A stretch of 64,000 nt of DNA from a virus. How positions within the stretch are numbered: the stretch's first letter is position 1; each line of letters begins with the position of its first letter. The DNA lies in the IMG/VR virus record IMGVR_UViG_3300027792_000292, positions 67,127-131,126 of that record; one strand, 5' to 3'. Below the pieces are notes generated by a model. It ran no database searches and was not told the origin of the DNA. It saw only the letters and a program-made list of their open reading frames with translations. Positions 2,417 through 24,584 of the stretch are shown in pieces. The translations under genes and the position numbers were made by a program.

Positions 2417-3736
2417 ATGGCTGATTATACCTCTCCTTATGCTGATATACCATCTTATGGTAAGGGTCCTAAGTCCCTTTACTCAACAAATAATGAGGAG
2501 ATCTTTGAGGTAATTCTTAATGTCCCTCAAATGGATGACGATGATGAGTGGGGTAAAACGGAGACTATTGCATTACGCCAGATTATTGATAGAGTTACTA
2601 CTATTGTTCAGGAAGTGGAAGATCCTAATGCTACGGGTACTAGTGGATTAGTGAACCAGGTTACTGCCCTTAGAAGAGTTATTCTATTAGATAATAATGT
2701 ATTCACATCTGGTATTACAAATGGTTGTTCATTAAGTATAGGTAGCACCCAAATATCCTCAACCGTAGCGGCTTTTGGAGGGTCAGTCACAGCACTGGGT
2801 ACTGTATCCGCTGTAGGATCTTTAAATAGTGGATCAGGATTAAATATTACTGGTAGTAGCATACTATGGGGTGACCTAACTGCTTGCGGTAATGTTAGTA
2901 CCTATGGTATTAGCGTAAATGGTCCTTTAAATGTGGTAGATGGTGATGGTGGTAGTGCAGCATTAAGCATTGCAGGACCTATAGCTGGAGAGTCTGTAAC
3001 CGCTGGATCAGGAAGATTTAATTATCTTGTAACAGAAGATCCGGGAACTAGTACCTTTTGTGGTAATGTTCGTGTAGAAAGCGTTGCTGGATTACCTGAT
3101 GATACAGGGAGTCTTACAGTTGATAAACAAATTACTACGGGGTCTTTAACTGCTACTTCTGTAATTGCTGGAGTAGCGTCATTTAGTGCTATTTCAGTAG
3201 CCGAGGCCGATCAGGATACTAGTACTTTTTTCGGGGCAGTTAATATAGTTAAAGTTACTGGTGTTCCTGATACTGGGTTTCTTACTGTAGAAGATACATT
3301 GACGACTCTTGCTCTTAATGTACTAGATGTGTCTCATTTCTATGGTGTATCAAACTTTTGTGGGTCTGTATTCATAGGGACTGATGGGATTACTAATACA
3401 GTAACACATAAAGGGAACTACATATTGAGTAATGGATACGCTACCATACCAATTATAGCTGGAAATACAAGTTTTAGTAATAACGTAACTATAACTGGTA
3501 CGTTAAATCTTGATGCTCTAGCTTGGACACAGACTATAGCTCCTTCTGTAAGTGGGGGGTATTCTTTAGGTAGTGCGGACTCAGCTTATTTAGGAGTTTA
3601 CCTGACAGATAGAAATAGTGCGGTACCTAATCCCTATCTTTTCTTTTTCTATCAAGGTGCTACTACACCATATCTTGGAGTGAGGATTGGTGCTACAAAC
3701 TATTATGTTGCGCTGACTAATTTAAGTCCGGCATAA
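2417..3736 (+). CDS. Putative virion structural / fibre-like beta-rich protein
   Basis: G/T/S/V-rich with repeated GSLTV / STFFG-type beta motifs; GGAG RBS before ATG 2417. Confidence 0.5.
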   Translation: MADYTSPYADIPSYGKGPKSLYSTNNEEIFEVILNVPQMDDDDEWGKTETIALRQIIDRVTTIVQEVEDPNATGTSGLVNQVTALRRVILLDNNVFTSGITNGCSLSIGSTQISSTVAAFGGSVTALGTVSAVGSLNSGSGLNITGSSILWGDLTACGNVSTYGISVNGPLNVVDGDGGSAALSIAGPIAGESVTAGSGRFNYLVTEDPGTSTFCGNVRVESVAGLPDDTGSLTVDKQITTGSLTATSVIAGVASFSAISVAEADQDTSTFFGAVNIVKVTGVPDTGFLTVEDTLTTLALNVLDVSHFYGVSNFCGSVFIGTDGITNTVTHKGNYILSNGYATIPIIAGNTSFSNNVTITGTLNLDALAWTQTIAPSVSGGYSLGSADSAYLGVYLTDRNSAVPNPYLFFFYQGATTPYLGVRIGATNYYVALTNLSPA

Positions 3737-5372: not shown

Positions 5373-6581
5373 ATGAGTATGCTAAATGCGTCTGTTTTTT
5401 CCATAACTCCTCATATGCAAAGAGTTATGGATATCAATGGTTGTTATGCTTCAATAATGAGGGCAGAAAAGAAACAAGAAGAGAGTAGTGATGGGTTACC
5501 CTCAGGTATACCTATACCAGTTCTTCCTGTAGATTACCTGAAAGATCGCCCCAAGGAATGGGTTGGCGGAGAGGGGTCTTACGTAGTACCTGTAGATTCT
5601 GATTGGGGTCTTTGGTTCAATTGGACTATGAATAATCCAATGGATACATCTGTTCTCGTTTCAGTAAAAGGGATGAATCCATTGACCGGACAGAAAATAA
5701 ATGGGTACACTCTTGAAGAGACTGGGAATGAATGCCCTATTCATAAGACTCCTTTTAAGAGGGGCAAGCTTTGTACTGAGTGTGGATTTAAGTGGCCATC
5801 ACAGAATTTTATTTCAGCCCCCAACCCACTTTATCTCGATGGTTTTAGACAAGCAGATGGAAATGTTCGTCAGTTCTTCTTCACTGAAGATATGGCACGT
5901 TCAATACCAGAGTTGGTAATTGGTAAAGAAGATACTGTGCCAGCGTTTGGATTCTGCTTTTATCGAAGAAAGAAGTATGAGATAACGTATGAGGGAGGGA
6001 ATAGATGTAAGAACGAATTTCCAAAAATTCAAGATATAAATGTAAGTTACCTAATAGGAGAAACAGGCGCACTATGTACTTCCTGTGATTCTTTAGAATA
6101 CGAACGTAGAACTTCTGGAGCCAGGCTCAGAGGCGGTGGCGTAGGGTCTACGAAGCGTTTTGGGCATCTATATAGTAAAGGACTCAGTAGTAGCTACGAG
6201 GCTTCCTATAGTACTTTATGTTGTGCTGCTGATGCCTCAGTTTCTTCATCAGAGCCAGAATTAAGGGCTTTCTATGCGGATTCTGATGTAGCACATACTA
6301 TCAATCTTGTAGACTCCTTTAGTGATGCTATAGAAGACCGTAGCGAAGTAAGGCTATATAAAAGTGCTGATGTGGGTATCGGCGCTGGAGCTAGGATAAA
6401 ACAGGACTTCATAAAATCTATAGTTCCTTTAGAGGATTGGAAGGAAAAACCCGAAGGTACACTCAGGTTATATTTTGTCTTCCAGGAACAGTTTGAGGCT
6501 ATGGCTGAAGCAGGCTTTAACGACCTTAGCGGAGCTAAGGAAGGATATTTGGTAAATCTTCCCGTAGGAGGTAGCAAATGA
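5373..6581 (+). CDS. Conserved hypothetical protein resembling a bacterial/fungal family often fused to ubiquitin domains, with zinc-ribbon insert
   Basis: Motifs LPVD...W..G...VP...LWFNW, QNFI.AP...YLDG....G.VRQF, GIGAGARIKQ...W; family match is from memory. Confidence 0.5.
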   Translation: MSMLNASVFSITPHMQRVMDINGCYASIMRAEKKQEESSDGLPSGIPIPVLPVDYLKDRPKEWVGGEGSYVVPVDSDWGLWFNWTMNNPMDTSVLVSVKGMNPLTGQKINGYTLEETGNECPIHKTPFKRGKLCTECGFKWPSQNFISAPNPLYLDGFRQADGNVRQFFFTEDMARSIPELVIGKEDTVPAFGFCFYRRKKYEITYEGGNRCKNEFPKIQDINVSYLIGETGALCTSCDSLEYERRTSGARLRGGGVGSTKRFGHLYSKGLSSSYEASYSTLCCAADASVSSSEPELRAFYADSDVAHTINLVDSFSDAIEDRSEVRLYKSADVGIGAGARIKQDFIKSIVPLEDWKEKPEGTLRLYFVFQEQFEAMAEAGFNDLSGAKEGYLVNLPVGGSK

Positions 6582-7183
6582 ATAAAGTAGATTTGTTATT
6601 TATAGTAGATATAACAGGATCTATGGGGAATCTTATTACAGAAGCAAAAAGAAGGATGAAGGATATTTTAGATAGGATAGTTAAAGAATATAATATCGAT
6701 TTAAAAGTTGGGTTAAGCTTTTATAGAGATCACCCATCGCAGGAAAGCACCTTTGTTACTGTTACATATGACTTAGATGATGTTGGTAAGACTGTAAAAG
6801 TGTTTGATACAGTTACAGCTTCAGGTGGAGGAGATACACCAGAAGCAGGTTTAGATGGAATTATTGATGGTATAAGTGACATGAAGTGGAGAGAGGGTTC
6901 CAGAAGAGTAGCTTTTCTTATTGGGGATGCTCCACTACACGGTATGTATGGTGATGAGGGTTGCTGTATGTGTGGGAAGACTTGGGGAGATGCTATTTCT
7001 ATAGCACAGTCTAAAGAAGTTACTATTTATTCTATCGTGTTAGGCGGAAATAGTGAAGCTCAGGATAATTTCAAAACATTAGCTATTTTTTCTGGTGGCC
7101 TTTATATCAAGACGGAAGATGCTATTGGTGCTATTTTTAATACACTAAAAGTTACTATGGAAGACCTTTCTATAAAAAGATAA
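6578..7183 (+). CDS. vWA domain protein
   Basis: MIDAS DITGSM, YRDH, GGGDTPEA, WR..SRRVAFLIGDAPLHG. Confidence 0.9.
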   Translation: MNKVDLLFIVDITGSMGNLITEAKRRMKDILDRIVKEYNIDLKVGLSFYRDHPSQESTFVTVTYDLDDVGKTVKVFDTVTASGGGDTPEAGLDGIIDGISDMKWREGSRRVAFLIGDAPLHGMYGDEGCCMCGKTWGDAISIAQSKEVTIYSIVLGGNSEAQDNFKTLAIFSGGLYIKTEDAIGAIFNTLKVTMEDLSIKR

Positions 7184-8596: not shown

Positions 8597-8790
8597 AATA
8601 GTTCCTTCCAGGCAGAGTTTAGTAGCTTAATTAATAAACCGTCACTAATTAGTAGATTATCACCATTTATACGGCCATAATCTATTCATACATAACTACA
8701 ATTAATTGGCCGTAGATAAAATATTTACTTTAAGATACAACTGTAAGTTATTATATTACATTAATATTTTAAAATTTGAGAGGAGATTCT

Positions 8791-9948
8791 ATGAGACCTC
8801 GTACAAAAAGTTCTAATCCTAAACATCAAATTCTGGCCCGTCCTGATGTGGAAACCGAGGAAGAGGCTGACATTGATAGCGGTATCTTAAGGCTTCAAGA
8901 TGAGAATCATAAGCTACGGTCTAAACTGAAAGACTTACAAAGAGAGAGCACTCTTTTCAAATCTCTTGCTGCGATCATTAAAGACCAAGCCCCCTTCTCT
9001 ACTTTTGCCCCTTGTAAATTACCGAAGATAACTAGAAAAGTCACTGAGTCTGCAATGCTCGTTCTCTCCGATAGTCATGGAGACCAGGAGATCCTAGGTA
9101 AGAGAGTTCAGAGTCTGGAAGAATATAATTTTGATGTCGCTTGTCGTAGAGCTGAGAGAATAGTTGATACTACTATAAGTCATCTAATTGACAATCTGAA
9201 AGGATATACTTTCGAGCGGCTATACATAGCCGGGCTTGGAGATTATGTTAATGGTGAGATTCATTCAGCACTTGAGCACTCCAAATGGAAAAATGCAATG
9301 AAGAATGCTATGGGCATGGGCGAATTAATGGCTATGATGATCACGGATTTATCTCGTTATTTTCCTGAGATAGTTTTCTGTTCAGTTTCAGGTAATCATG
9401 GTAGAAAAAGTATAAAGAAGGATTATAGAGGAGCGCAGGATAATTGGGACTATCTTGTAGGTATGCACACAGCTACAAGACTAAAGCCTCTTATAGAAGA
9501 GGGAAGAGTAAAGATACACATACCAGATTCTTGGTCTATGGGGTTGAGTGTTTATAATTGGAATTTCGTATTAAATCACGGAGATGATATAAAGAGCTGG
9601 AATAGTCTCCCATGGTATGGGATTGAAAGAAAAACAAGAAGATTAAATGCTATTGGTTCAATAACTGGTAAAATGCCAAATTACTTTTTATTTGGACACT
9701 TTCATAATATGGCTACTCAACAGCATACCACAGGAGAGACTCTCATCAATGGTAGCTGGAATGCTACCGATGAGTTTGCCTTGGAAGGATTAGGAGCATA
9801 CTCCGAACCTTTTCAGTGGTTATTTGGTATTCACCCAAAATATGGGATAACCTGGAGACTTCCAGTAAAGTTAAGAGTTCCTAATTGGGCAGATGCTGAA
9901 AGTAAATCAGGACGTTATAACATAAGTCTATTTGAAGATTTTGAGTGA
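8791..9948 (+). CDS. Calcineurin-like metallophosphoesterase with N-terminal coiled coil
   Basis: SDSH, GD, GNHG, HGD and GHFH motifs. Confidence 0.85.
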   Translation: MRPRTKSSNPKHQILARPDVETEEEADIDSGILRLQDENHKLRSKLKDLQRESTLFKSLAAIIKDQAPFSTFAPCKLPKITRKVTESAMLVLSDSHGDQEILGKRVQSLEEYNFDVACRRAERIVDTTISHLIDNLKGYTFERLYIAGLGDYVNGEIHSALEHSKWKNAMKNAMGMGELMAMMITDLSRYFPEIVFCSVSGNHGRKSIKKDYRGAQDNWDYLVGMHTATRLKPLIEEGRVKIHIPDSWSMGLSVYNWNFVLNHGDDIKSWNSLPWYGIERKTRRLNAIGSITGKMPNYFLFGHFHNMATQQHTTGETLINGSWNATDEFALEGLGAYSEPFQWLFGIHPKYGITWRLPVKLRVPNWADAESKSGRYNISLFEDFE

Positions 9949-10129
9949 TACTATGTATAAATTTATTAAGAAAATCAAAAATGTCTTTGTTCCTCTCCAG
10001 GCTACTATACTTCTATTCAACCTGGAGACATAGTACTTGTACTAAAGGATGGTAAACCATACGGAGTTTGTGGATCGGTTTATGCTACGTAGGTTGATAT
10101 GTCAAGACAAATAGAATATAAAAAATCAC

Positions 10130-10158
10130 TTGATCTTAAATAAGTGAAATGGTATATT
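10130..10158 (+). promoter_or_regulatory. sigma70-type promoter of the ncRNA array (P1)
   Basis: TTGATC-17 nt-TATATT with TG extended -10; boxA-like GATCTTTGA at 10167. Confidence 0.75.
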
Positions 10159-10181
10159 AGTAGTACGATCTTTGATAAAAT

Positions 10182-10330
10182 GGGTTCTGCACTCTGACAG
10201 ATAATGGATGCGTACATTTGCATTTGCATTTAGCTCAGTCGGTAGAGCTGAGGAATAATAATCCTTTGGTCGGCGGTTCAACTCCGCTAGTGCATTCCTT
10301 TCTATCGCATCTGCGACTTGTGCAGAACCC
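10182..10330 (+). ncRNA. Scaffolded RNA unit 1 carrying a linear tRNA-like cargo (loop ATAATAA, anticodon AAT)
   Basis: Outer stem GGGTTCTGCAC/GTGCAGAACCC; GATGCGTACATT...CGCATC; D arm TAGCTCAGTCGGTAGAGC, T arm GGCGG-TTCAACT-CCGCT. Confidence 0.8.
10224..10296 (+). tRNA. tRNA-like cloverleaf (Ile-AAT-like, non-canonical) embedded in unit 1
   Basis: Acceptor TGCATT/AGTGCA, anticodon stem GAGGA/TCCTT, no encoded CCA. Confidence 0.5.
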
Positions 10331-10344
10331 TTTTAAAATTTTTC

Positions 10345-10410
10345 TTGATCATTGAATACCGAAATGGTATATTAGTGTTACTCAAGTGAAACTTGGAAAG
10401 TTCTTTGAAA
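10345..10410 (+). promoter_or_regulatory. Promoter P2 with boxB-like hairpin and boxA-like element
   Basis: TTGATC-17-TATATT (10345-10373); hairpin CAAG-TGAAA-CTTG; GTTCTTTGAAA at 10400. Confidence 0.7.
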
Positions 10411-10535
10411 GATACGAAGCATACTCAAACCCTTGATGCATACATTATAGCTCATTGGTAGAGCGTTTGCCATTTAAGCAAAAGGTACGGTTCAAATCCG
10501 TTCGTCCCGCATTAGTAACTCGTGTGCTTTGTATC
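10411..10535 (+). ncRNA. Scaffolded RNA unit 2 carrying tRNA D/anticodon/T arms without an acceptor stem (anticodon TTT, Lys-like)
   Basis: Outer stem GATACGAAGCATAC/GTGTGCTTTGTATC; GATGCATACATT...CGCATTAGTAACTCG; TAGCTCATTGGTAGAGC, TTTGC-CATTTAA-GCAAA, ACGG-TTCAAAT-CCGT. Confidence 0.8.
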
Positions 10536-10640
10536 TATATATTTCGAGAGTTCTCGCTACTCAACGACCACGGATTAAAAGACGTATACGAAGAGTAAAG
10601 GGTCTCTCGACTGAAAATAAGTTTTTTGATAATAGATCTT

Positions 10641-10788
10641 TGACATGAGTTACACTCCAACTTTTGATGCGTACATTTGCTTTTTCGTCCAATTGGTAGG
10701 ACATTACTCTGATAAAGTGATTGTTGGGGGTTCAAGTCCCTCAAAAGCAGCCCAAAACTCGCATTATCAACTTGTGTAACTCATGTCA
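10641..10788 (+). ncRNA. Scaffolded RNA unit 3 carrying a complete tRNA-Ile(GAT)-like cloverleaf
   Basis: Perfect 15-bp outer stem TGACATGAGTTACAC/GTGTAACTCATGTCA; GATGCGTACATT...CGCATTATCAACTTG. Confidence 0.85.
10678..10750 (+). tRNA. tRNA-Ile(GAT)-like, embedded in unit 3
   Basis: Acceptor TGCTTTT/AAAAGCA, D GTCC/GGAC, anticodon arm TTACT-CTGATAA-AGTGA, T arm GGGGG-TTCAAGT-CCCTC. Confidence 0.7.
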
Positions 10789-10796
10789 TTTTTTTC

Positions 10797-10860
10797 TTGA
10801 TCTTTAATTACCAAAAAGGTATATTAGAATACAGACCTGAAAAGGTCAAGCTCTTTGAAA
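10797..10860 (+). promoter_or_regulatory. Promoter P3 with boxB-like hairpin and boxA-like element
   Basis: TTGATC-17-TATATT (10797-10825); GACC-TGAAAA-GGTC; GCTCTTTGAAA at 10850. Confidence 0.7.
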
Positions 10861-11032
10861 GATAGAAGCACTCTCTAATTTTGGATGCATACATTGGTTC
10901 AAGCGTTTGCTAACTAAAGCAAAAGATTGTTCGTTCAAGTCGAACTTCCCCCACCAAGTAGATTTTAATGTCTACTTGGTGGGGGAAAAGCTTAATAAAA
11001 AAAGCATTTATAACTTGAGTGTTTCTTCTTTC
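10857..11032 (+). ncRNA. Scaffolded RNA unit 4 carrying a circularly permuted tRNA opened in the D-loop
   Basis: Order after GATGCATACATT: 3' half of D arm (GGTTCAAGC), anticodon arm, T arm GTTCG-TTCAAGT-CGAAC, acceptor 3' strand with ACCA inside a 17-bp perfect hairpin, acceptor 5' strand, then AA-GCTT (5' D stem). Confidence 0.75.
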
Positions 11033-11067
11033 ATTCGTTCCTTGTCCCTATGTAATAGGGGTTGTTC

Positions 11068-11218
11068 TATGAAAAGTATCTTCTAACAGTTAGGGCGTAC
11101 ATTATCCTGTAAAGATAAACGCCTGGGCATTAAGCGCTCAGGCATCTGTATTCCTTCCGCCTTAGCGCGGCTGGGATATAGCACACGCATTGATTACTCG
11201 GATACTTCTCTTGTCATA
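11068..11218 (+). ncRNA. Scaffolded RNA unit 5 carrying a Tyr(GTA)-like anticodon stem-loop plus two GC-rich hairpins
   Basis: AAGTATC/GATACTT outer stem; GGGCGTACATT...CGCATTGATTACTCG; TTATC-CTGTAAA-GATAA. Confidence 0.7.
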
Positions 11219-11231
11219 CTCTTTGAAATTA

Positions 11232-11356
11232 TAGTGTATTTATCCTCTAATGCTGAGGGCTTACATTTTCTACGGTTGAAAAACAAGCCTAAGCGCACTC
11301 CCGTTTGGTGGGAGGAAGCGATGGGTCGAGCACTTAGGACTCGGATAAATACATTA
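11232..11356 (+). ncRNA. Scaffolded RNA unit 6 with a 5-bp/7-nt hairpin and a GC hairpin cargo
   Basis: Outer stem TAGTGTATTTATCC/GGATAAATACATTA; GGGCTTACATT...GCACTTAGGACTCG; TTTTC-TACGGTT-GAAAA; CTCCC/GGGAG. Confidence 0.65.
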
Positions 11357-11375
11357 TTATATAATTACTATGAGT

Positions 11376-11526
11376 ATAAGTCTCATCTTCTAACTTTTGA
11401 TGCGTACATTGTCATGCTGGTTCGAATCCAGTCGCTCTTTTCGGAGAGCGTAGCCGAATGGTAAGGCACCCGTTTAAGGAACAGGAACAAAACAAACTTC
11501 GCATTAGTAACTTGGATGGGATTTAT
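11376..11526 (+). ncRNA. Scaffolded RNA unit 7 carrying a circularly permuted tRNA opened at the variable loop (YrlA-like arm order)
   Basis: ATAAGTCTCATC/GATGGGATTTAT outer stem; GATGCGTACATT; T arm GCTGG-TTCGAAT-CCAGT, acceptor CGCTCTT-TTCG-GAGAGCG closed by a tetraloop, D arm TAGCCGAATGGTAAGGC, anticodon-like CCCGT-TTAAGGA-ACAGG; CGCATTAGTAACTTG. Confidence 0.8.
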
Positions 11527-11527
11527 T

Positions 11528-11563
11528 AAGAGCCGGGATTCGAAAGGATTCCGGCTCTTTTTT
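11528..11563 (+). terminator. Rho-independent terminator ending the ncRNA array
   Basis: AAGAGCCGGGATTC-GAAA-GGATTCCGGCTC followed by T6. Confidence 0.85.
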
Positions 11564-11678
11564 ATTAAATAATTATTTTCAATTATTTATGTCAAATAGT
11601 ATATTACTCTGAACATTGAATATTAGCCTATAAGTGATAATTGGTAAATTAGTACCACAATGTAAGAGGAGGTTCAAG

Positions 11679-11936
11679 ATGGCAAGTGTGCATATTCGTT
11701 ACGATGGTAGTACCAGGGAAGTCGATTTCGAAAATATTTTTCCAGAAGATCGACTTACAGCTATAGGGATTGCCAATACCGCGCAGGTTAACTCACGCAA
11801 CGTGAGCGCCGATAACGTCAAGACTGCCGTAGCGCAGTATCTCGATATCGGATTGGGAGAACTTGATGGGTATAACGTCGAGTTCCATAAGAACGGAAAC
11901 ATCACCGTTCGCCCTGATGCTGTATTTGGGAAGTAA
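11679..11936 (+). CDS. Small ubiquitin-like (beta-grasp) protein ending ...RPDAVFG-K
   Basis: GAGGAGG RBS; beta-beta-alpha-beta pattern (VHIRYDG.TREV / VKTAVAQYL / YNVEFH.NGNITVRP), near-terminal Gly; E1 and JAB genes nearby. Confidence 0.65.
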   Translation: MASVHIRYDGSTREVDFENIFPEDRLTAIGIANTAQVNSRNVSADNVKTAVAQYLDIGLGELDGYNVEFHKNGNITVRPDAVFGK

Positions 11937-12006
11937 GTTGTCCAACTCGGGCCTATAAATTAAGGCCCTCAAACCTGATAATATAATACTTAAAAGGAGA
12001 AACTCC

Positions 12007-13605
12007 ATGAATCGTCAGCGTAACACTCAAACTGTTTCCGCGCCACAAATACCACAGGTTGAACAGGACATCCGTGTTCAAATGCTCAATAGCTTCATGT
12101 CCTGTCCACATCGTGATACTGATGCGATCAGGAAGATACATGAGGATCTGCGACAGCGTGACCCTTCATTCTACTCTCATCTTGCTGCCTGGTATGAGAA
12201 GAATGGCGAACTTCGCGACCACAAGGAAGTATTCATTTCTATGTTGATCGTAGACCCCTATCTCGATAACCGTGAGGTTGGTCTTGCCCTGTGGCAGAAA
12301 GCTGTGCCTTTCATGAAGACCCGTATCCTTGGTTTCATTAAGGGTAAGAAGGTCAAGATTCGTGAGAAGACAAATCAGACACGCCAAGTTGGAAAGAAGA
12401 AAATTCCGGTAGTAAACGTGACCGAGAAAGTTGTGGGCCTTTTTAAGAACGTGCCCTCAGCGTTCAAGACTGAGGTGGTACACTATCTAAAGTGGTTAGA
12501 GACCGACCCTGAGCGTTTTGATGGTGTGGCTATGCGCAACTCTGAGGATTTGAGGACGCTCTACGCTTCCTTGAAAATCCCTCACTCAAAGAGAGTGCAA
12601 CAAATCCTTTGGGAGAAGAAGTACCCAAAGGAGAGTAAGTTGAATGTTTTCAAGGAGATTACGGATGCGAAGTCTCCTGAAGAAGCAGCAACGCTCATTG
12701 TTAAGAATAAGGTTCCGTATACTACGGCAGTAGGTCTCATTGAGAAGATGACCCCCTCCATCTTGGTTGCTCTCATCAATAATATGAGTTCCCAGGAAGT
12801 TATTAACAACATTGCTTCTCTTCAGGAGAGTGGTGCATTAGATAACCCTGATACTAAGGCTATGGTTGAAAAGAAGCTTAAGCAGGCTGAGACCGCAAAG
12901 AATGTTACAGCCTTGAAGTCTAAAGCAGCGATTAATACAGGTCGTATCAAGGATGAGGCTGTCGTGGCGCAACTTGATAAGATTGCAGATGTACAAATAA
13001 AGAGCAAAGGTATCATTATGGCTTCTACAGCGATCTTTGTAGATCGCTCTGGATCGATGAGCATTGCTATTGAGTCAGGGAAGCATTGTGCAGCGATGGT
13101 ATCCGGTGCTACAGAAGCTCCTTTGTATGTGGTTGCCTTTGATACGCTTCCAATGGAAATCTATCCAGTGTCCGCACGTCCAAAGGACAGGACCACTACC
13201 ATGACCGACTGGGAAAGGGCATTTAAGCCTGTGCGCGATGGTGGTTCGACTTCTATGGGATGTGCTTTGGAGTATCTGCGTCAAAAGAAGATGTACGTTG
13301 AGCAGATTGTTGTTATTACTGATGAGGGTGAGAATGCAACCCCCATGTTCACTGATGTCTATACTCGGTACTCCGAGGAGATGAAGGTGAAGCCTCATGT
13401 GGTTATCATCCGTACACCAAATTCAGGTCATACTTTCAGCACAAACCTGAAGAGGGCTGGTATTAGTTATGATGTATACACTCCTAATGGGTCAGACTAC
13501 TATGGTTTACCAGGATTGATTCCACTTCTTGCCCGAACATCGAAGCTGGACCTTCTTATGGAGATCATGGATACTCCGCTTCCTACACGTAGGCAGTGGA
13601 AGTAA
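12007..13605 (+). CDS. Ro60/TROVE-like helical protein with C-terminal vWA domain
   Basis: Long helical N-terminal region (DPSFYSHLAAW, ELINNIASL-type helices) followed by MIDAS DRSGSM, GGSTSMG, VVITDEGEN; 532 aa, similar in size to Ro60; adjacent to tRNA-mimic RNAs. Confidence 0.75.
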   Translation: MNRQRNTQTVSAPQIPQVEQDIRVQMLNSFMSCPHRDTDAIRKIHEDLRQRDPSFYSHLAAWYEKNGELRDHKEVFISMLIVDPYLDNREVGLALWQKAVPFMKTRILGFIKGKKVKIREKTNQTRQVGKKKIPVVNVTEKVVGLFKNVPSAFKTEVVHYLKWLETDPERFDGVAMRNSEDLRTLYASLKIPHSKRVQQILWEKKYPKESKLNVFKEITDAKSPEEAATLIVKNKVPYTTAVGLIEKMTPSILVALINNMSSQEVINNIASLQESGALDNPDTKAMVEKKLKQAETAKNVTALKSKAAINTGRIKDEAVVAQLDKIADVQIKSKGIIMASTAIFVDRSGSMSIAIESGKHCAAMVSGATEAPLYVVAFDTLPMEIYPVSARPKDRTTTMTDWERAFKPVRDGGSTSMGCALEYLRQKKMYVEQIVVITDEGENATPMFTDVYTRYSEEMKVKPHVVIIRTPNSGHTFSTNLKRAGISYDVYTPNGSDYYGLPGLIPLLARTSKLDLLMEIMDTPLPTRRQWK

Positions 13606-13611
13606 CGAGAT

Positions 13612-13643
13612 AGGGGTGGGCTTCATCAGAAGCCCCTCTTTTC
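13612..13643 (+). terminator. Putative terminator
   Basis: GGGCTTC/GAAGCCC stem followed by TCTTTT. Confidence 0.5.
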
Positions 13644-13659
13644 TATTTAAGAGGATAAT

Positions 13660-14523
13660 ATGAACGACGTACTAGCACTTATCAAAAAGATGGGGGAGAA
13701 AGAAGATACTATTACTAAGAGTATCTTTATATCTCCTATATATGGGAATGAGTATGTCGTTACTCGTATCAATGGGTTAGTTCATAAGTTGGGGGTACCC
13801 GACTCTACTAAGCCAGGTTGGTACAAGTTGAAGGCTTGTAATTTTAAAAGAGCCAAAGTAGTTGGTAACGCAGACTTCATTGAAGTTGAAGAGTATCTCA
13901 AGATGCTCACGAAGATACGAGTGATATTAGTCTACAAAAAAGACGAATTGTACTTTGGTGTTCCTTTGAAAAACAATTCAGCTGGCTTTGGCGTGTCAGA
14001 TCTTATCCCGATATATTTAACATCTGATGATCTTGTAGGACCATTTGAGAAGGTCGTTTGCGGTTTTGACGGGGCTAACCTCTGGTACTATCAGAATGAT
14101 ATCTCTGCTGATCCTGCCAGGACGGAGTATTTAAGGGAGAGCTTTGATAAGTTTGTTCGACCAGATAAGGTACAGTATACAGGATTAACTCTTGAGGAGA
14201 AGATAGCTTACACTCTCAGATTCAATTTGGATAAGAAAGCCAGAGAGTCTTTGAAGGAAGTACTTATACAGAAAGATGTAGAGTTTGCTGGTGGTGAGTT
14301 TGTGAAGTTCGTAGAAAGAAATGATCACTACAGCGTCACCTATAAGATAGGTGGAAATCAATATACGAGTTATGTAACTAAAGATGAGAGTCATCATGTA
14401 CTTACTGCAGGGGTATGTTTAAATGGTCACGATAGAGACTATGATTTGACTTCTCTAATAACGGTTCTAAGAGAAGGACAGAGAAGGGGTCTTATTCATA
14501 GATATAACAATACTACAGAATAG
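13660..14523 (+). CDS. Hypothetical protein, candidate E2-like conjugating enzyme
   Basis: C-terminal beta meander then AGVCL.G.D..YDL.SLITV, recalling the E2 G-x-ICL catalytic Cys; context next to Ubl/E1/JAB. Confidence 0.4.
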   Translation: MNDVLALIKKMGEKEDTITKSIFISPIYGNEYVVTRINGLVHKLGVPDSTKPGWYKLKACNFKRAKVVGNADFIEVEEYLKMLTKIRVILVYKKDELYFGVPLKNNSAGFGVSDLIPIYLTSDDLVGPFEKVVCGFDGANLWYYQNDISADPARTEYLRESFDKFVRPDKVQYTGLTLEEKIAYTLRFNLDKKARESLKEVLIQKDVEFAGGEFVKFVERNDHYSVTYKIGGNQYTSYVTKDESHHVLTAGVCLNGHDRDYDLTSLITVLREGQRRGLIHRYNNTTE

Positions 14524-14531
14524 GAGTAGCT

Positions 14532-14711
14532 ATGGATATTCTTACAGAAGAAGAGCGTGCCAAGTTAGAAGAGCAGGGTTGGATTATAACAAGTGAAAGC
14601 CCTCTTGAAATACGGCATGAAGAGAGTGATTCTTTCGCATCTAATGTGGCAGCAGAGATGCTTATACAGGTATTATTGGAAGAGGATGAAGAAGAGGACT
14701 CTGAGGAATGA
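14532..14711 (+). CDS. Small acidic hypothetical protein (59 aa)
   Basis: AGGAG RBS; MDILTEEERAKLEEQGW...; stop overlaps the next start. Confidence 0.55.
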   Translation: MDILTEEERAKLEEQGWIITSESPLEIRHEESDSFASNVAAEMLIQVLLEEDEEEDSEE

Positions 14712-15319
14712 CGGTATATGTTATAGGACCTAAAGATAGAAAACGGATGATAGAGTTTAAAGCTAAGAACATTCCTATAGTGAATACAACATCCTCCGCA
14801 AAGGGATGTTGGTCTATGTTATTGAGTCCTTTTTATCTTGGGCCTGTATATTTGTATGGAGGGTATTCTGCCTGTAAGATGGAAAGCGCATGGCAGTATA
14901 GTAAGGTATACTCCAGTTATATGGATGCTGAAGGAAATCCTACCCCAGCATATTTTGAATGGGCGATGGAAGGGTGGAAGAGTAAAATAGCAGTCAGGTA
15001 CCCTATGGGTAAAGAGGCTAAGCCAGAGTACATATGGTGGGATGGTGAGAAGTTAGATTATGTAGCTGCGAGAAAGAAAGTCTATGCTCCTTTATACATA
15101 AAGTGCGTAGTGCCTAAAATATCTTTCACTAAGCTAAAGGAAATGAGGGACAGTAATACCGACATAGTACTTTGGGATTTTGATGGCTATGATTATATTT
15201 CATTAGGTATGACTTTGAGAGATGTACTAAACGATCCGAATCGTAAGATGGGGCATGCTTTTATTTTGGCAATACTTTTAACAATGAAAAAAGAAGAAAT
15301 TTTAGATATACTGAGTTAA
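14708..15319 (+). CDS. Conserved viral protein (DUF6939/NADAR-like)
   Basis: LSPF, ESAWQYSKVY, YVAARKKVYAPLY, DFDG, GHAFILA motifs. Confidence 0.45.
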   Translation: MTVYVIGPKDRKRMIEFKAKNIPIVNTTSSAKGCWSMLLSPFYLGPVYLYGGYSACKMESAWQYSKVYSSYMDAEGNPTPAYFEWAMEGWKSKIAVRYPMGKEAKPEYIWWDGEKLDYVAARKKVYAPLYIKCVVPKISFTKLKEMRDSNTDIVLWDFDGYDYISLGMTLRDVLNDPNRKMGHAFILAILLTMKKEEILDILS

Positions 15320-15320
15320 T

Positions 15321-15494
15321 ATGGGAAAAATAATAAAGAATATATGGAGACTGTGGGCTAAGGCGTTAGGTCAGAAAGCATCGGATGATGATAAAGAAGC
15401 AGATATAGTAGCCATTATAAGAACAGTCATAGCTTTAGTTTACATCATAACAAACATAGTCATAGTAGCCGGAGTTATTAAGCACTGGTATTAA
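15321..15494 (+). CDS. Small membrane protein common in large phages
   Basis: WRLWAKALGQKASDDDKEADIVAIIRT...VAGVIKHWY; not in the ORF track (57 aa). Confidence 0.6.
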   Translation: MGKIIKNIWRLWAKALGQKASDDDKEADIVAIIRTVIALVYIITNIVIVAGVIKHWY

Positions 15495-15662
15495 TAGGGG
15501 GTGACCGTGAATTTAAGTAAATCAGACTTTGAAGTATTGGACTGCCCAGATGGTATAGTATACCAAGACGGAACTAAATATGAGTTTACGTCAGAAGAAA
15601 AGTTAAAAGAAACAGAAAAGATAAAAGAAGCTACTAAGCACACAAGAATGAAAGACTGAAAC

Positions 15663-16019
15663 ATGAATGAAAAGTGTTGGTTTATCTTCGGTAAGAAGGT
15701 AAAGAATACATACATCGGATGGTTGAAGTATAGCTCTGAGGGAAATCCAGTAAGTGTAAGTTTTAATTGGTCAGATGCAGCAAAGAAGAATCTTCTTGGA
15801 TTTCATCACACACATCCTGATGGCTGTTTATGGTTTTCTTCAAGAGATGATAAGACAATGAAAGCTTGGGCCAGGGCAGAGGGAAAACCCCTTATCTGCT
15901 CAGTAAGAAGTAGTGGGAAAGATGCAGCAGCGATATGGAAGAGAATGGAAGATAAAAGTGTAGGGCATCTACCGCTACATGTAATGATAAAAGGTAACCT
16001 ATTTATGGCATGGGAATAA
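15663..16019 (+). CDS. JAB/MPN+ metallopeptidase (Ubl protease-like)
   Basis: GFHHTHP-x6-SSRD JAMM motif. Confidence 0.8.
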   Translation: MNEKCWFIFGKKVKNTYIGWLKYSSEGNPVSVSFNWSDAAKKNLLGFHHTHPDGCLWFSSRDDKTMKAWARAEGKPLICSVRSSGKDAAAIWKRMEDKSVGHLPLHVMIKGNLFMAWE

Positions 16020-16252
16020 GTTATTACTATGCCATACTTGGTGTAAATAGTGTAATACCCTTATTGAAAGGTATAGAAGTGAAAATTGAGTCAACTGGTT
16101 ACTTAATAAAAACAGTTAAATACAAAGGTAAAATCTATCCACCATTGTCTATATTTCGTTGGATCGATTATTTACCTGGTAATCAAGTTAAGATACAAAT
16201 TGATGCGGACATCATAATTGTACATAGCACATCCATTCATATAGGAGGATAA
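16010..16252 (+). CDS. Hypothetical protein
   Basis: ORF fills the gap between flanking genes. Confidence 0.35.
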   Translation: MGISYYYAILGVNSVIPLLKGIEVKIESTGYLIKTVKYKGKIYPPLSIFRWIDYLPGNQVKIQIDADIIIVHSTSIHIGG

Positions 16253-16254
16253 TT

Positions 16255-17163
16255 ATGGAAAGATCAACTATTCGGAGACAGCTACATAAAACTGTACGAG
16301 AATGGATTAACAGTATCACAGATGTCAAAGTAAAAGAAGCTTGCGAGGCAGATGTGTTAGTTGCAGGTGGATGTATCTCTTCAATATTGTTAAAGGAAAA
16401 AGTTAACGACTATGATGTATATTTTCGAACAAAAGAAACCGCGAGCCTCGTAGTAGCTTATTATGTTAACTTATTTAAAAGCACCTTTCCTACTGCTACA
16501 CATATAACAGGAAAACCAATCGAAATTTTTACGGATGGTCCAAATATCATAATAAAATCTGCAGGGGTTGCCTCAGCTACAAGTTCAGATACGCCTTATC
16601 AGTACTTTGAAACTGCACCAGAAGATAACGCAGCGGAGTACTTGGATGTAGCGGTAAATGCTAAAATTCCAAAAGATTTACCTCCATATACTCCTATTTT
16701 CTTGTCTGGTAATGCTGTTACCTTGACCAATAGTATTCAATTGGTTACTCGATTTTATGGTGACATTGATTATGTCAAAACCACCTTTGATTTTGAGCAT
16801 ACAAAATGCATTTATGACTTTGCTGCCAATCGACTGCATTTACCTGAAAATTCGTTATATGCTATTTTAACTCGATCATTAATCTATACAGGATCAGCAT
16901 ATCCCATTTGTTCAATGATCAGAACAAATAAGTTTATCCAACGAGGCTGGTCGATTAATGCAGGTAACTATTTAAAGATTGCTTTCGATATTAACAGTTT
17001 AAATCTTAACTCTTTAAATACACTTAGAGATCAACTCATAGGTGTAGATGTAGCATATTTTCAAGAATTGTTGGAAGTTTTAAAGAAGGATATTACACAA
17101 ACACCTGGTAAAGTTATATCAGCTACGTATATTGCGGAGCTGTTGGATCGTCTATTCGCATAG
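16255..17163 (+). CDS. Pol-beta superfamily nucleotidyltransferase (CCA/poly(A) polymerase head-like)
   Basis: AGGCIS...NDYDVYF and FDFEHTK motifs; R..KF.QRGW. Confidence 0.7.
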   Translation: MERSTIRRQLHKTVREWINSITDVKVKEACEADVLVAGGCISSILLKEKVNDYDVYFRTKETASLVVAYYVNLFKSTFPTATHITGKPIEIFTDGPNIIIKSAGVASATSSDTPYQYFETAPEDNAAEYLDVAVNAKIPKDLPPYTPIFLSGNAVTLTNSIQLVTRFYGDIDYVKTTFDFEHTKCIYDFAANRLHLPENSLYAILTRSLIYTGSAYPICSMIRTNKFIQRGWSINAGNYLKIAFDINSLNLNSLNTLRDQLIGVDVAYFQELLEVLKKDITQTPGKVISATYIAELLDRLFA

Positions 17164-17171
17164 GAGTACAT

Positions 17172-17810
17172 ATGAAGACCTTTGTACATGAGGAAGTTTA
17201 CCGGGGTAAGGAAACCCTGGATAAGATTGCAAAAGCTAAGTTCACTATTTGCGGGCTCGGAGCTATCGGCTCAAACCTTGTGATGAACATGGCTCGTCAG
17301 AGTTTCACGAATTTCACGGTTATTGATTTTGACCGTATAGAGGATCACAATCGTCATACACAAATTTGGGGTGCAAAAGAAGTCGGTCAGATGAAGGCTG
17401 CTATGATGCAGCGCCGAATGTACGATGAGATGGGTTTGAAGATTCAGATAGAGCCAAAGAAGTTAGATGAGGCCAACATTAAGAAGCTTGTACAGAAGGA
17501 CACTATTGTGATAGATGGTTTTGACAATACTGAAGCTCGTGGTCTTGTGACTACGTTCTGTACTGAGAACAAGATTCAATGCTTGCACATAGGGATGCGT
17601 CAGGACTACGCAGAGGTTATCTGGAATGAAAACTACATAGTCCCTAAGAAGCACGGAAAAGATATCTGTGAGTATCCCCTTGCCAGGAATATTATTCTGT
17701 TGGCAGTGGCTGTGGGTACAGAAACTATTCTTCGCTATGTGGATACTGGGGTAAAAGAGAACTATGCAATCACCCTAAAAGACTGCAATATCTCTAAGCT
17801 GGAGTATTAA
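17172..17810 (+). CDS. ThiF/MoeB/E1-family adenylyltransferase
   Basis: GLGAIGS Rossmann loop, DFDRIEDHNRHTQ, K, DGFDN..AR, DICEYPLARN (candidate catalytic Cys). Confidence 0.9.
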   Translation: MKTFVHEEVYRGKETLDKIAKAKFTICGLGAIGSNLVMNMARQSFTNFTVIDFDRIEDHNRHTQIWGAKEVGQMKAAMMQRRMYDEMGLKIQIEPKKLDEANIKKLVQKDTIVIDGFDNTEARGLVTTFCTENKIQCLHIGMRQDYAEVIWNENYIVPKKHGKDICEYPLARNIILLAVAVGTETILRYVDTGVKENYAITLKDCNISKLEY

Positions 17811-19885: not shown

Positions 19886-20761
19886 ATGTCTAAAATATTT
19901 TTGGCATATCCAATCGCAAAGGATTGCAACTTAAGATGCTATTACTGTTATCATACAGAGCACTTCGAATCCAACTTTGAAGAGAAACAAAGATTCACCT
20001 TCAAAGATTATGTACGTTTCCGAGATACCCATTTGAGCGATGCCTCTGAAATCATTGTGCATTTTCACGGTGGAGAACCCTTTATCCCAGGCAACTCAAA
20101 CACTATCTGTTCCTTCCTGAGAAGTACACGATTGGAGAAGGCAGACCTGCTTACGAACGGGCTACAGGATAGAGCGAACTATGAAAAGCTTCTACCTTTG
20201 AAAGATCGGATACATAGAGTAGGATTCACTTTTCATAGGCAGATCATAGGCGGGGTCAAATCTTATATACAGAAATATGAAGACAACGTAAAGTGGCTAC
20301 ATAGTCAGGGTATTCCAGTTTATGTGAAAGAGCTAATGTTCCCAAAGCTGAGAGATGATATTTTGAGTTATAAACGTTATTGGAAATCTCTTGGGATACC
20401 ATACAAGATACAAGACTTCCGTGGATCGGATAGAGGATTCAGTAGAGAGGCTTATGGGGATTATACTCCCTTAGATATCCTTCTTGTGGATTCTGAGTAC
20501 AAGCACGGAGGAGAATTCTGTTCTTGTATGAAGGGGTATAAGAATGTTCTAATACGCGGGGGATGGATGAGCGGCCAAATAATAGCGTGTTTTGAAGACC
20601 CTAAGTGTATCGGATCGCTATTAGATAATACATATAATCCAAACTATAAAATATGTAGAGATACTAATTTAGGTAGAATAAATGTCACAGGAGTACCGGA
20701 AGTATATCTTGGGGCATATGAAAGAGATTTACCAAAGCCTAAGTATTGTGGGCAGGACTAA
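19886..20761 (+). CDS. Radical SAM protein
   Basis: CNLRCYYC, FHGGEP, LLTNG. Confidence 0.9.
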   Translation: MSKIFLAYPIAKDCNLRCYYCYHTEHFESNFEEKQRFTFKDYVRFRDTHLSDASEIIVHFHGGEPFIPGNSNTICSFLRSTRLEKADLLTNGLQDRANYEKLLPLKDRIHRVGFTFHRQIIGGVKSYIQKYEDNVKWLHSQGIPVYVKELMFPKLRDDILSYKRYWKSLGIPYKIQDFRGSDRGFSREAYGDYTPLDILLVDSEYKHGGEFCSCMKGYKNVLIRGGWMSGQIIACFEDPKCIGSLLDNTYNPNYKICRDTNLGRINVTGVPEVYLGAYERDLPKPKYCGQD

Positions 20762-20762
20762 T

Positions 20763-21185
20763 ATGATATTAAATAATGAAGACACAGAATATTTGAAAGA
20801 GCTGTCTGTAAGATGGGGTTTGAAATATCGTGAGCCGATTACGATAGGGACGTACCGATGGTATCTATTTATGTACACAAACTTATACGATTGTTTACCT
20901 GAGTATAAGATAGATGATAGGGATAGAAGAATTTTAACGAGTATATTTATAAAGCTTAAGCCAGAACATAAGCTTACTTGGATAAGGCATAAGCTTTATG
21001 AAGCCTCTGAGGATATAGAAAATATTAAAGAGGAAGAAATGAACTCTACTGTTATAGGTCAATTAACCAATATTAGGGAATTTAGAGTAGCTTTATTTCT
21101 AATGTACTGTTTGGAAACTAAAGATTACATTTTAGATGATTATGTTTTAGATACTTTCAAATATTTAGAAAAGTATAGGAGCTAA
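20763..21185 (+). CDS. Hypothetical protein
   Basis: ORF in operon-like spacing. Confidence 0.5.
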   Translation: MILNNEDTEYLKELSVRWGLKYREPITIGTYRWYLFMYTNLYDCLPEYKIDDRDRRILTSIFIKLKPEHKLTWIRHKLYEASEDIENIKEEEMNSTVIGQLTNIREFRVALFLMYCLETKDYILDDYVLDTFKYLEKYRS

Positions 21186-21186
21186 C

Positions 21187-21834
21187 ATGGAGTACCAATT
21201 TGATTTCTCAACTAAGTTTGAGTTCTGGAATCATGACCATTGGGAAAATTTTGAAGAGATAGTTACACGATTCTCTGGGAGAGAGAATCTTAATTTCCTT
21301 GAGATAGGTGTTTGTGAAGGGTGGACAACGACTAAACTATTAGATAGTGTATTAACAGAAGATGGTTGTACCATACATTGTATTGATCCTGATCCTTCCC
21401 CCCTATTTGAGCAGAATATGAAGGAGCATTCTGGGAGATATGTTCTGTATAAAGATTACTCAATTAACGTACTACCGAGGCTTTTACAGATAGGGTCAAA
21501 ATTTGATTTAGTTTATGTAGATGGAGATCACACAGCCTTCGCTGTATTGGAGGATATGGTTTTGTCCTGGAAGCTTCTAAAGAAGGGTGGACTTCTTCTT
21601 GTGGATGACTATGAGATGAAGATAAAGGACCAGTGGTTCTATAAATGCCATAAAGAATTCAAGGATACGCCACGTCTTTTGTTCATTCATCCTATGGTAG
21701 CTATAAGTGCGTTTATGACCATATACAGAGGCTGTTACGAACTATGTATAAATAATTACCAGATAGGTTTGATAAAAACGGTAGACCTATGTGAGCAGAA
21801 CATAAATAGCGGTGACGGGCTAACAACATATTGA
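21187..21834 (+). CDS. Class I SAM-dependent methyltransferase (Methyltransf_24-like)
   Basis: FLEIGVCEG, FDLVYVDGDH, LKKGGLLLVDDY. Confidence 0.85.
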   Translation: MEYQFDFSTKFEFWNHDHWENFEEIVTRFSGRENLNFLEIGVCEGWTTTKLLDSVLTEDGCTIHCIDPDPSPLFEQNMKEHSGRYVLYKDYSINVLPRLLQIGSKFDLVYVDGDHTAFAVLEDMVLSWKLLKKGGLLLVDDYEMKIKDQWFYKCHKEFKDTPRLLFIHPMVAISAFMTIYRGCYELCINNYQIGLIKTVDLCEQNINSGDGLTTY

Positions 21835-23465: not shown

Positions 23466-24584
23466 ATGCTTGAGATACTTAAATTTTTAAATGAGCATCC
23501 TTATGATTGGAAGCAGGTTCTGGAAGCAGAACCATATTGTATGACCATACGGGAGAAGGGTAACTTTGTACTTTTTATGTACAATCAAATCGAATCCGAT
23601 TTCAATATTCCTTTAGTACAGGAATGCCGTGGAATCGTATTAGAGAAGGATACCTGGAAAGTTCTATGTTTTCCTTTTACCAAATTCTGGAATGCCGGGG
23701 AATCCAAGGCAGCGGTACTTGATTGGGGCTCTGCGCGAGTACAGGAGAAAATAGATGGTTCCATGATAAAGCTTTGGTGGTACGAACCAGAGTGGAGAGT
23801 ATCTACCATGTCCATGATAGATGCAAAAGATTGTACCTTACAGAACGATTTAGATGTCAGATACAATACTTTCTATGATTTGTTTATGGAAGGCGCAAAT
23901 AAAAGAGCTTTAGACTTTGAAGCTTTAAATAAAGATTATACGCATATGTTTGAGTTAGTAGGACCTTACAATCGAGTGGTTGTGCCATATAAAGACATTG
24001 CTATAACCCACACGGGAACTAGAGATAACAGAACTCTCGAAGAGTTAGATATCGACCTTGGGGTTCCTAAGCCTAAGTCTTATGGGTTCAAGGCCCCAGA
24101 AGATGTTCTGGCTATGGCAGCTGCCTTGCCTTTCTCTGAAGAGGGCTATGTGGTTGTAGATGCTAATTGGAATCGAATAAAAATCAAAGGCCCGGCCTAT
24201 GTAGCTGTGCATCACCTCAAAAATAATGGTGACATAAATAAGAAAAGGGCTTTAGCGCTTGTCATGCTTAATGAGCAGGAAGAGTTCCTGTCCTATTTCC
24301 CGGAGTACAAAACATACTTCGATGTTATCACTGATGCTTTCAATACCTATTTAGGTAAGGTAAAAGCTGATATAGATTCTATTGAGGGAAAGGTATTTGA
24401 AACCAGGAAGGAATATGCTCTAACTGTTAAGGGTATGACTAACTCCGCCCTTATGTTCTTTATTATGGACGGTAGAGTTAAGAAGGAAGATTGGGAAAAG
24501 CATATACGTTCTTTGCCCTCAGATAAAGTAGTAGAGTATCTACATTTAAAAAATATAAAAGAGTCATTGGAGGTAAAAGAGTAA
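23466..24584 (+). CDS. T4 Rnl1-like RNA ligase
   Basis: ECRG, PF.KFWN, motif I EKIDGS, FEL..P.NR.VV, EGYVV, RIKIK...Y...H. Confidence 0.9.
   Translation: MLEILKFLNEHPYDWKQVLEAEPYCMTIREKGNFVLFMYNQIESDFNIPLVQECRGIVLEKDTWKVLCFPFTKFWNAGESKAAVLDWGSARVQEKIDGSMIKLWWYEPEWRVSTMSMIDAKDCTLQNDLDVRYNTFYDLFMEGANKRALDFEALNKDYTHMFELVGPYNRVVVPYKDIAITHTGTRDNRTLEELDIDLGVPKPKSYGFKAPEDVLAMAAALPFSEEGYVVVDANWNRIKIKGPAYVAVHHLKNNGDINKKRALALVMLNEQEEFLSYFPEYKTYFDVITDAFNTYLGKVKADIDSIEGKVFETRKEYALTVKGMTNSALMFFIMDGRVKKEDWEKHIRSLPSDKVVEYLHLKNIKESLEVKE

Follow-up and report, generated by a model that had tools for sequence, protein, structure and literature searches.

Why would a virus encode, one after another, seven small RNAs that display seven different anticodon-like loops, and what work would such RNAs do? 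The question is raised by a stretch of 64,000 nucleotides (nt) from IMG/VR record IMGVR_UViG_3300027792_000292 (positions 67,127 to 131,126 of that record; the whole stretch is called the window below), in which seven small-RNA units, U1 to U7, lie between 10130 and 11560 on the + strand. A first-pass annotation had interpreted their diversified loops as a decoy or sensor repertoire, perhaps bait for host defences that target transfer RNAs (tRNAs), rather than as parts of tRNAs used in translation. On balance, we think it somewhat probable that the seven loops are the anticodon or anticodon-like arms of variable cargos carried on RNAs resembling Y RNAs, that these RNAs stand outside ordinary decoding and that the arm is their specificity element. 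The strongest clue to the nature of the seven RNAs is the adjoining gene, which codes for a Ro60-like protein.

Seven units on a common handle

The 5' box of each unit ends in GCNTACATT, and every 5' box is matched by a single 3' box with the pattern GCAYY-(3-6 nt)-NACTYG, in all seven units. The 64-kb window contains 10 copies of GCNTACATT, compared with 2.11 +/- 1.48 expected, and seven of the 10 fall on the + strand within the 1.2-kb stretch 10210-11410. The seven-unit array is not chance. Across the 131-kb record no handle units were found beyond these seven, and the only two tRNAs called there by ARAGORN are both inside them.

Folding with ViennaRNA yielded one common structure, here called the handle, for seven of seven units. 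Both ends of the unit pair in a long closing stem, followed by an asymmetric internal loop (CUCYAAY on the 5' side, ACUYG on the 3' side), an inner stem of about 7 base pairs (bp) and a single-stranded UACAU(U) junction, beyond which the variable cargo sits. Covariation in the closing stem is evident from the scores of box partners: for true partners the median is 13, with 75 of 80 at 9 or above, a figure that may be set beside only 20% of 395 mismatched partners. The variable N of GCNUACAU and the base preceding GCA combine as UA 17 times, GC five times, AU four times and UU twice (n=28). Since cargos of 24-152 nt interrupt the handle, units were sought with two box patterns (a regular expression) and a closing-stem score rather than with a covariance model. 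The unit counts are lower bounds because the strict pattern misses variants, for example three units with permuted tRNA cargos in a related locus, L026. These further handle units lie at 2340-2830 on the minus strand of that locus, have GCTC rather than GCAY in the 3' box and share the anticodon stem ATTGA/TCAAT, with loops TGGTAAA, TAGCAAA and CATTTAA.

The cargos of the window differ widely. U1 (10176-10335), preceded by a promoter-like site (TTGATC-17-TATATT, 10130-10158), bears a complete, unpermuted tRNA on its scaffold (10224-10296, anticodon AAT, 53.8 bits with the Rfam tRNA model), whose anticodon arm occupies 10250-10266 with the loop ATAATAA at 10255-10261. The upstream site of U1 is repeated before U2 (10345-10373) and before U4 (10797-10825). 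In U2 (10410-10536) the tRNA-like cargo (10447-10502; 41.3 bits, model positions 7-64) is without an acceptor stem; its anticodon arm lies at 10466-10482, and the loop CATTTAA (10471-10477) gives the anticodon TTT with A at position 33. A second complete tRNA (10678-10750, anticodon GAT, 60.9 bits; arm 10704-10720, loop CTGATAA at 10709-10715) is carried by U3 (10641-10788), whose closing stem pairs 10641-10655 with 10774-10788. The cargo of U4 (10856-11033) is tRNA-like and rearranged, being composed of an anticodon-like arm (10906-10923, with the 8-nt loop TAACTAAA at 10911-10918), a T arm and a 17-bp hairpin (10946-10987), a layout that recurs in cargos of the related loci L033 and L075. 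U5 (11071-11210) and U6 (11216-11377) have non-tRNA cargos, each opening with a 5-bp stem and a 7-nt loop (U5, 11102-11118, loop CTGTAAA at 11107-11113; U6, 11266-11282, loop TACGGTT at 11271-11277). U7 (11376-11526) presents a circularly permuted tRNA in the order T arm, closed acceptor, D arm and anticodon-like arm, the last (11469-11485) having the loop TTAAGGA at 11474-11480 on a stem with one C.A mismatch. A terminator-like hairpin with a T run (11528-11559) closes the array after U7. All seven stem-loops listed by the first-pass annotation are present in sequence and folds alike, and the 5-bp stems of U5 and U6 do begin, as it had noted, at the TT of TACATT.

Only U1 and U3 are full cloverleaves by the Rfam tRNA model; U2 is partial and U4-U7 fall below. 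The same two units comply with the usual rule for anticodon loops (7 nt, U at position 33, a purine at position 37), the loop of U2 having A33 and that of U4 8 nt. The acceptor stems of U1 and U3 can be opened and are followed by T-CCT and G-CCC, respectively, instead of CCA; those of U4 and U7 are closed, U5 and U6 have none and that of U2 is absent. A search of 9900-11700 with cmscan (E <= 10) returned tRNA, one weak YrlA match and otherwise chance matches, with no ribozyme, no other named family and nothing resembling the amoebal Class I RNAs found, and blastn against deposited phages gave nothing beyond tRNA-like matches of 57 nt. A motif CTTTGA(A/T/C)A also stands at, or just 5' of, the foot of the closing stem (10172-10178, 10401-10407, 10637-10643, 10851-10857 and 11219-11225) and is present in many related units.

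The Ro60-like protein and its relatives

The array shares its strand with a gene (12007-13605, + strand) that lies 520-1,900 nt further downstream and codes for a Ro60/Rsr-like protein of 532 residues, which combines a HEAT-repeat ring with a vWA domain containing DxSGS and is the presumed partner of the RNAs. An AlphaFold model, produced from 25 homologues, has a predicted local distance difference test score (pLDDT) of 82.4. The 12 best matches found for it in the PDB by Foldseek are all Ro60, Rsr or TROVE structures (524-586 columns, E 1.8e-10 to 2.6e-8, query template modelling score, TMq, 0.51-0.62), and they include Deinococcus Rsr, Xenopus and human Ro60 and the Ro60 of Thermus phage phiLo (9kop, 9l5y). 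D346, S348, G349 and S350 of the DxSGS sequence are invariant in the 25 homologues; DxSxS is what we take to be the signature of the MIDAS, or metal ion-dependent adhesion site, of the vWA domain. By sequence, the protein matches no Pfam family at E <= 0.01, TROVE included, and no NCBIfam family; phmmer against the PDB found no Ro60 chain and no sequence match, and the sole family match is to PHROG 850, 'RNA-binding protein' (2e-6). Judged by its modelled fold, and not recognisable as such by its sequence, the product of 12007-13605 is a very divergent phage Ro60.

At least 480 homologues of the protein were found, many of them on contigs of 100-470 kb, the closest having 93% and 87% identity. 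The record to which the window belongs is a virus contig of 131 kb rated 24% complete, and is therefore a fragment of a huge phage. In 94 loci fetched around homologues, the handle is present in 54, and in 41 of the 56 loci that hold at least 2.5 kb of upstream sequence. The 99 units of these loci are all upstream of the Ro60-like gene (78 on the same strand, 21 on the opposite strand) and none is downstream, the median distance from unit to gene being 1,252 nt. Within five whole relatives (173-470 kb), 10 of 13 matches to a gapped pattern are at the Ro60 locus, the three others are not tRNA-looking, and a control with the reversed pattern gave 0 matches.

Ro60 accompanied by tRNA-like Y RNAs is already known, phages included. 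Chen 2014 (PMC4201824) found bacterial and phage Y RNAs by looking on the strand that encodes Ro60, up to 4 kb away from it; the array at 10176-11526 also lies within ~4 kb on the same strand, and it is because of this rule that we infer binding by Ro60. According to the same paper, one Y RNA per species has a tRNA-like domain. Like the YrlA Y RNAs described there (RF02553), the present RNAs are positioned no more than 4 kb from a Ro60-type gene, mostly on its strand and with several RNAs per locus, and consist of an end-paired stem with an internal loop and a tRNA-like module; U7 even has the order T arm, closed acceptor and D arm, and matches the Rfam YrlA model partially (11415-11467, 24.7 bits, E 0.018, model positions 30-81 of 114). 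Unlike YrlA as there described, they have CUCYAAY and ACUYG with an invariant UACAU junction in place of GNCGAAN0-1G. Their cargo, moreover, is modular, with at least four layouts that include whole unpermuted tRNAs attached at the acceptor end and keeping an intact anticodon arm, they form a seven-unit array, their arms vary between close relatives and the protein is without a Pfam TROVE match.

A second precedent is the Thermus phage phiLo (PMC12135203), in which a Ro60 homologue binds host PNPase and has Y-like RNAs of stem-bulge-stem form, Yrl1 and Yrl2, directly upstream. In phiLo the RNAs number two and have CGAA as the bulge, and no tRNA cargo is mentioned in the available passages of the report; the present array comprises seven RNAs, the bulge differs and the cargos are derived from tRNAs. 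What is new here is the handle, the modular cargos with whole tRNAs whose anticodon arms are free, the size of the array and the switching of anticodons described below; no description of this system of Ro60 plus handle RNAs was found in the literature searched, the supplementary Y RNA lists of Chen 2014 being outside its scope.

Anticodons, bodies and the changing arm

From 106 units we obtained 77 distinct cargos, in 40 of which ARAGORN called a tRNA. These were compared with 129 ARAGORN tRNAs from the regular arrays of four near-complete huge-phage relatives (G001-G004; L095-L104), both sets of counts including related sequences that are not phylogenetically independent. The regular tRNA sets of the four relatives, which give 36, 47, 31 and 14 Rfam matches, are encoded elsewhere in their genomes. 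Irregular loops of 6 or 8 nt occur in five of the 40 scaffolded tRNAs and in none of the 129 regular ones (p 6e-4). U33 is present in 25 of 35 scaffolded and 117 of 129 regular tRNAs (p 0.009), and A at position 34 (A34) in 10 of 35 and six of 129, respectively (p 2e-4). The six regular tRNAs with A34 are all Arg-ACG or Leu-AAG, whereas nine of the 10 scaffolded ones are Asn, Asp, Ile or Val. Bodies of <80 nt are found in all seven scaffolded cargos with Leu or Ser anticodons as against none of the 25 regular Leu, Ser or Tyr tRNAs (p 3e-7), every one of which measures at least 83 nt. In bacteria, Leu, Ser and Tyr anticodons go with bodies having a long variable arm, and A34 is confined to Arg-ACG and a few Leu tRNAs. 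In the scaffolded Leu and Ser cargos the anticodon does not fit the class of the body.

The resemblance to an anticodon arm extends to cargos that are not tRNAs. Ten of 37 such cargos open with a stem of 5-7 bp and a 7-nt loop, compared with 1.84 +/- 1.33 in shuffles, and in locus L068 the whole cargo is one perfect anticodon-arm look-alike. An enrichment among the cargos of anticodons targeted by nucleases (Arg, Asn, Asp, Gln, Lys, Tyr) was considered as well and set aside as post hoc.

Two groups of unusual tRNAs may be recorded here. Among the 129 regular tRNAs, 12 carry C rather than U at position 33, and all four relatives possess a tRNA that ARAGORN labels Pyl and that, with its anticodon CTA, would decode the amber stop. 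Scaffolded cargos with the anticodon TCA, labelled SeC, which would read the opal stop, are present in L010, L014 and L017 (about 3236-3312 and 2435-2520).

The comparison of loop sets across related phage arrays, which had been suggested with the original proposal, shows diversification. Nine pairs of units differ by no more than 12% outside the anticodon arm, and four of these have switched anticodon (AAT/AAC, ATC/TCT, GCA/CTT and ATT/TCC). Summed over the nine pairs, differences affect 16 of 152 positions in the arm and 33 of 996 elsewhere, and are thus about three times denser in the arm. Once the arm is removed, 17 pairs from different records have a body identity of at least 0.9, and the anticodon differs in 14 of them; sorted by eye, the 17 pairs make eight groups, five of which include two or more anticodons. 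One body bears TAA, ATT, TCC or TCT in different phages, and this body is 95% identical between G001 and G004. In two metagenome records, L026 and L027, 5,382 aligned bases contain seven differences, all within 19 nt, and this stretch is the anticodon arm of one scaffolded tRNA, which has changed from ATC to TCT with the pairing of its stem kept. Stems and loops also recur in new combinations: the stem ATTGA/TCAAT is reused with several loops in different units, and identical loops, such as CTATTAA and CATTTAA, are seen on different bodies, the latter being the loop of U2 as well as of a permuted L026 unit. The anticodon arm is the fast-changing part of these RNAs.

Further metagenomic data bear on the window itself. 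Contigs from three DNA runs (X2, X3 and X4; two further studies, labelled freshwater sediment and soil metagenome) agree with the window at every position that they cover, so that no microdiversity is shown in this strain over the covered parts. In the metatranscriptome library X14, contigs of a relative at ~90% cover 10260-10624, 10789-10910 and 11279-11463. The cargo of U2 is unchanged in this relative. At U4 the match ends at 10910, where the loop starts, and the unmatched end suggests a 7-nt loop CTGAAAA, while at U6 an unmatched contig end suggests the loop TACCATT.

The peculiarities of the cargos relative to regular tRNAs, together with the switching of anticodons, support the view that these RNAs are not ordinary decoding tRNAs. 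The earlier suggestion to this effect draws support from the presence of A34, the missing U33, the irregular loops and the Leu and Ser anticodons on class-I bodies, as also from the switching on conserved bodies and from cargos reduced to bare stem-loops. A number of results weigh in the other direction, or against the kinship with Y RNAs. The anticodon is unchanged in five of the nine close pairs, and differences confined to the arm are seen in only one of 17 pairs of near-identical but non-identical loci. Clustered differences are found inside protein genes too and, because of this, short recombination patches are a possible cause. A control for switching in the regular tRNAs was uninformative, with 0 pairs across relatives at a body identity of at least 0.9. 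Evidence from RNA libraries consists only of the three contigs of the ~90% relative, for which DNA carry-over is possible and which we do not take to prove transcription. The GNCGAAN0-1G motif is missing from all seven handles of the window, its lone match, at 11453, being in the D arm of U7; no unit reaches the RF02553 gathering score of 69 bits, and U7 alone touches that model.

The remaining contrary results concern the ends and loops of the tRNA-type cargos. The first-pass annotation had stated that most units lack a free acceptor end or CCA and so could not be charged without processing. For the window this stands, inasmuch as a free end with CCA encoded in the genome is found in none of the units, but relatives mostly keep an acceptor of 6-7 bp: when 37 distinct canonical units are aligned, one row being mis-registered, 34 have at least 6 bp, and CCA is encoded directly after the discriminator, followed by an A-rich linker, in 22. 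A purine is found at position 37 in 35 of 35 scaffolded cargos. Because CCA is encoded and acceptors are intact, the release of replacement tRNAs is a serious rival, though in our judgement an unlikely one. According to this explanation the tRNA-type units are genuine, nuclease-resistant replacement tRNAs and the handle is the leader-trailer helix of a precursor, perhaps chaperoned by Ro60, from which RNase P and 3' trimming would free a chargeable tRNA whose odd loop (A34 or A33) escapes host anticodon nucleases. The full cloverleaves of U1 and U3 would be expected of such tRNAs, and there are precedents in the YrlA of M. smegmatis, which RNase P cleaves and to which CCA is added (Chen 2014, PMC4201824), and in phage tRNAs with anticodon-loop mutations, proposed to evade anticodon nucleases (van den Berg 2023, PMC10264068). 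Replacement tRNAs would, on the other hand, hardly be expected to place all seven of their Leu and Ser anticodons on short class-I bodies, to exchange TAA, ATT, TCC and TCT on one body across phages or to have loops of 6 or 8 nt. Permuted, acceptor-less and stem-loop-only cargos have the identical handle, the relatives already possess 14-47 regular tRNAs, the same anticodons among them, and U1 and U3 of the window end in CCT and CCC, not CCA.

Less probable still, and to our minds distinctly so, is that the units are classical Y-RNA tethers or gates, whose handle binds Ro60 and in which the tRNA-like fold does no more than stabilise the RNA or recruit PNPase or another exoribonuclease, the variation of the loops being neutral drift. 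Nuclease protection has been proposed as one role of the tRNA-like module (Chen 2014, PMC4201824), the phiLo Ro60 with its two Y-like RNAs offers a case of PNPase binding (PMC12135203), and the anticodons kept in five of nine close pairs would be in keeping with drift. The loops seem to be under constraint, however, since 7 nt, purine 37 and compensatory stem pairs persist, and drift would not predict the concentration of differences in the arm among the close pairs, the confinement of all seven L026/L027 differences to it or the sharing of CTATTAA and CATTTAA between different bodies. A purely structural role of the tRNA fold fits the data worst. That the units are decaying tRNA genes or functionless chance repeats, as the incomplete or rearranged state of U2 and U4-U7 might suggest, is very improbable and already contradicted by a handle that 54 of 94 loci preserve, with covariation and without exception upstream of the Ro60-like gene, and by the pairing of the boxes in each unit and the promoter-like and terminator-like sites flanking the units.

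Possible partners and neighbouring genes

In the reading that we prefer, in which the arm is the specificity element, the ring protein of Ro60 type whose gene lies a short way downstream would bind the constant handle, and the cargo, be it a whole tRNA, an acceptor-less tRNA, a permuted tRNA or a bare stem-loop, would present the anticodon arm as the working end. The fast-evolving arm could then direct the particle to proteins that read anticodon arms, or soak up such proteins. The leading sub-hypothesis is that these readers may be tRNA-cleaving defence nucleases of the host, the RNAs acting as uncleavable or sacrificial mimics, or as sensors, beside the tRNA-repair enzymes of the phage. The RNAs may plausibly be anticodon-nuclease decoys, and nuclease bait is one of several ways in which a Ro60-tethered anticodon arm could act. 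Host tRNA-cleaving defences are the most economical guess because of the repair genes of this phage and the published work on phage tRNAs and anticodon nucleases.

The genes in question, of RNA or tRNA repair type, lie 12-18 kb downstream and code for a T4 Rnl1-like RNA ligase (23466-24584; PF09511, 3.4e-12), a Thg1-like 3'-5' nucleotidyltransferase (28582-29451; PF04446, 3.1e-28) and a calcineurin-like metallophosphoesterase (29451-30107). An AAA ATPase, encoded at 26777-28534, belongs to the set as well. Jumbo phages are described as mending cleaved RNA with gene sets of this ligase, Thg1 and phosphoesterase type (Iyer 2021). As in the published cases of phage tRNAs that evade defence (PMC10264068, PMC11555353, PMC11464382), the RNAs here are tRNA-shaped with unusual anticodon loops and the phage carries an Rnl1-like ligase. 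The tRNAs of those reports (PMC10264068; Azam 2024, PMC11555353; Burman 2024, PMC11464382) are, as described, free and chargeable replacements for cleaved host tRNAs, whereas the present RNAs have a handle predicted to bind protein, many are not chargeable as encoded and their anticodons and bodies do not match.

A more elaborate form of the proposal, which we advance tentatively and consider doubtful, is that huge phages maintain a programmable panel of Ro60-anchored baits, with one hypervariable arm per host defence protein and arms swapped as cassettes in an arms race. The handle would load each RNA onto the ring, within a gene set that includes an OB-fold-like partner, a JAB-like peptidase and a ThiF-type enzyme.

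Ro60 and Y RNAs are conserved from bacteria to humans, and the purpose of the bacterial tRNA-like module is an open question. A swappable cargo, with an arm that changes between near-identical phages, suggests that the working part is the anticodon arm. Should defences of the host that cleave tRNAs turn out to be the partners, phages would have a third strategy in addition to repairing tRNAs and encoding nuclease-resistant ones, and an RNA-surveillance particle would be linked to the conflict between phage and host over tRNAs. In practical terms, tRNA finders label such units tRNA-Ile, tRNA-Asn and so on, and the apparent decoding capacity of huge phages is therefore inflated.

The Ro60-like gene is itself part of a conserved set at 11679-17810. 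Between it and the array is an open reading frame of 85 residues (11679-11936, + strand) that has no family match, a similar small frame being present in L054 and L056. Its neighbour on the other side (13660-14523, + strand) codes for a protein of 287 residues with an invariant AGxCL motif and is found in 75 of the 94 loci. The model of this protein, with a pLDDT of 87.6, consists of beta-barrels strung in tandem and gives weak matches (E from 6e-5, TM <0.27) to ribosomal protein S1, to exosome cap proteins and to the CSD and S1 parts of RNase II/R. It was also considered as an E2 enzyme, an idea that we rejected, there being no E2/UBC structure among the Foldseek matches listed and weak OB/S1/CSD-type ones instead. 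The set further includes a JAB-like open reading frame (44 of 94 loci; its Prok-JAB match of 9.5e-5 is below the Pfam cut-off) and one of ThiF type (32 of 94 loci; match to the ThiF family 1.6e-23).

Upstream of the array, an 'exonuclease' gene (8776-9948, PHROG 284) was not used, having no PDB sequence match and occurring in only 12 of the 94 loci. Elsewhere in the window, 1-1371 is the 3' part of a gene for an NAD-dependent DNA ligase, 6578-7183 codes for a separate small vWA protein, and 19886-21834 holds a radical-SAM protein followed by a methyltransferase.

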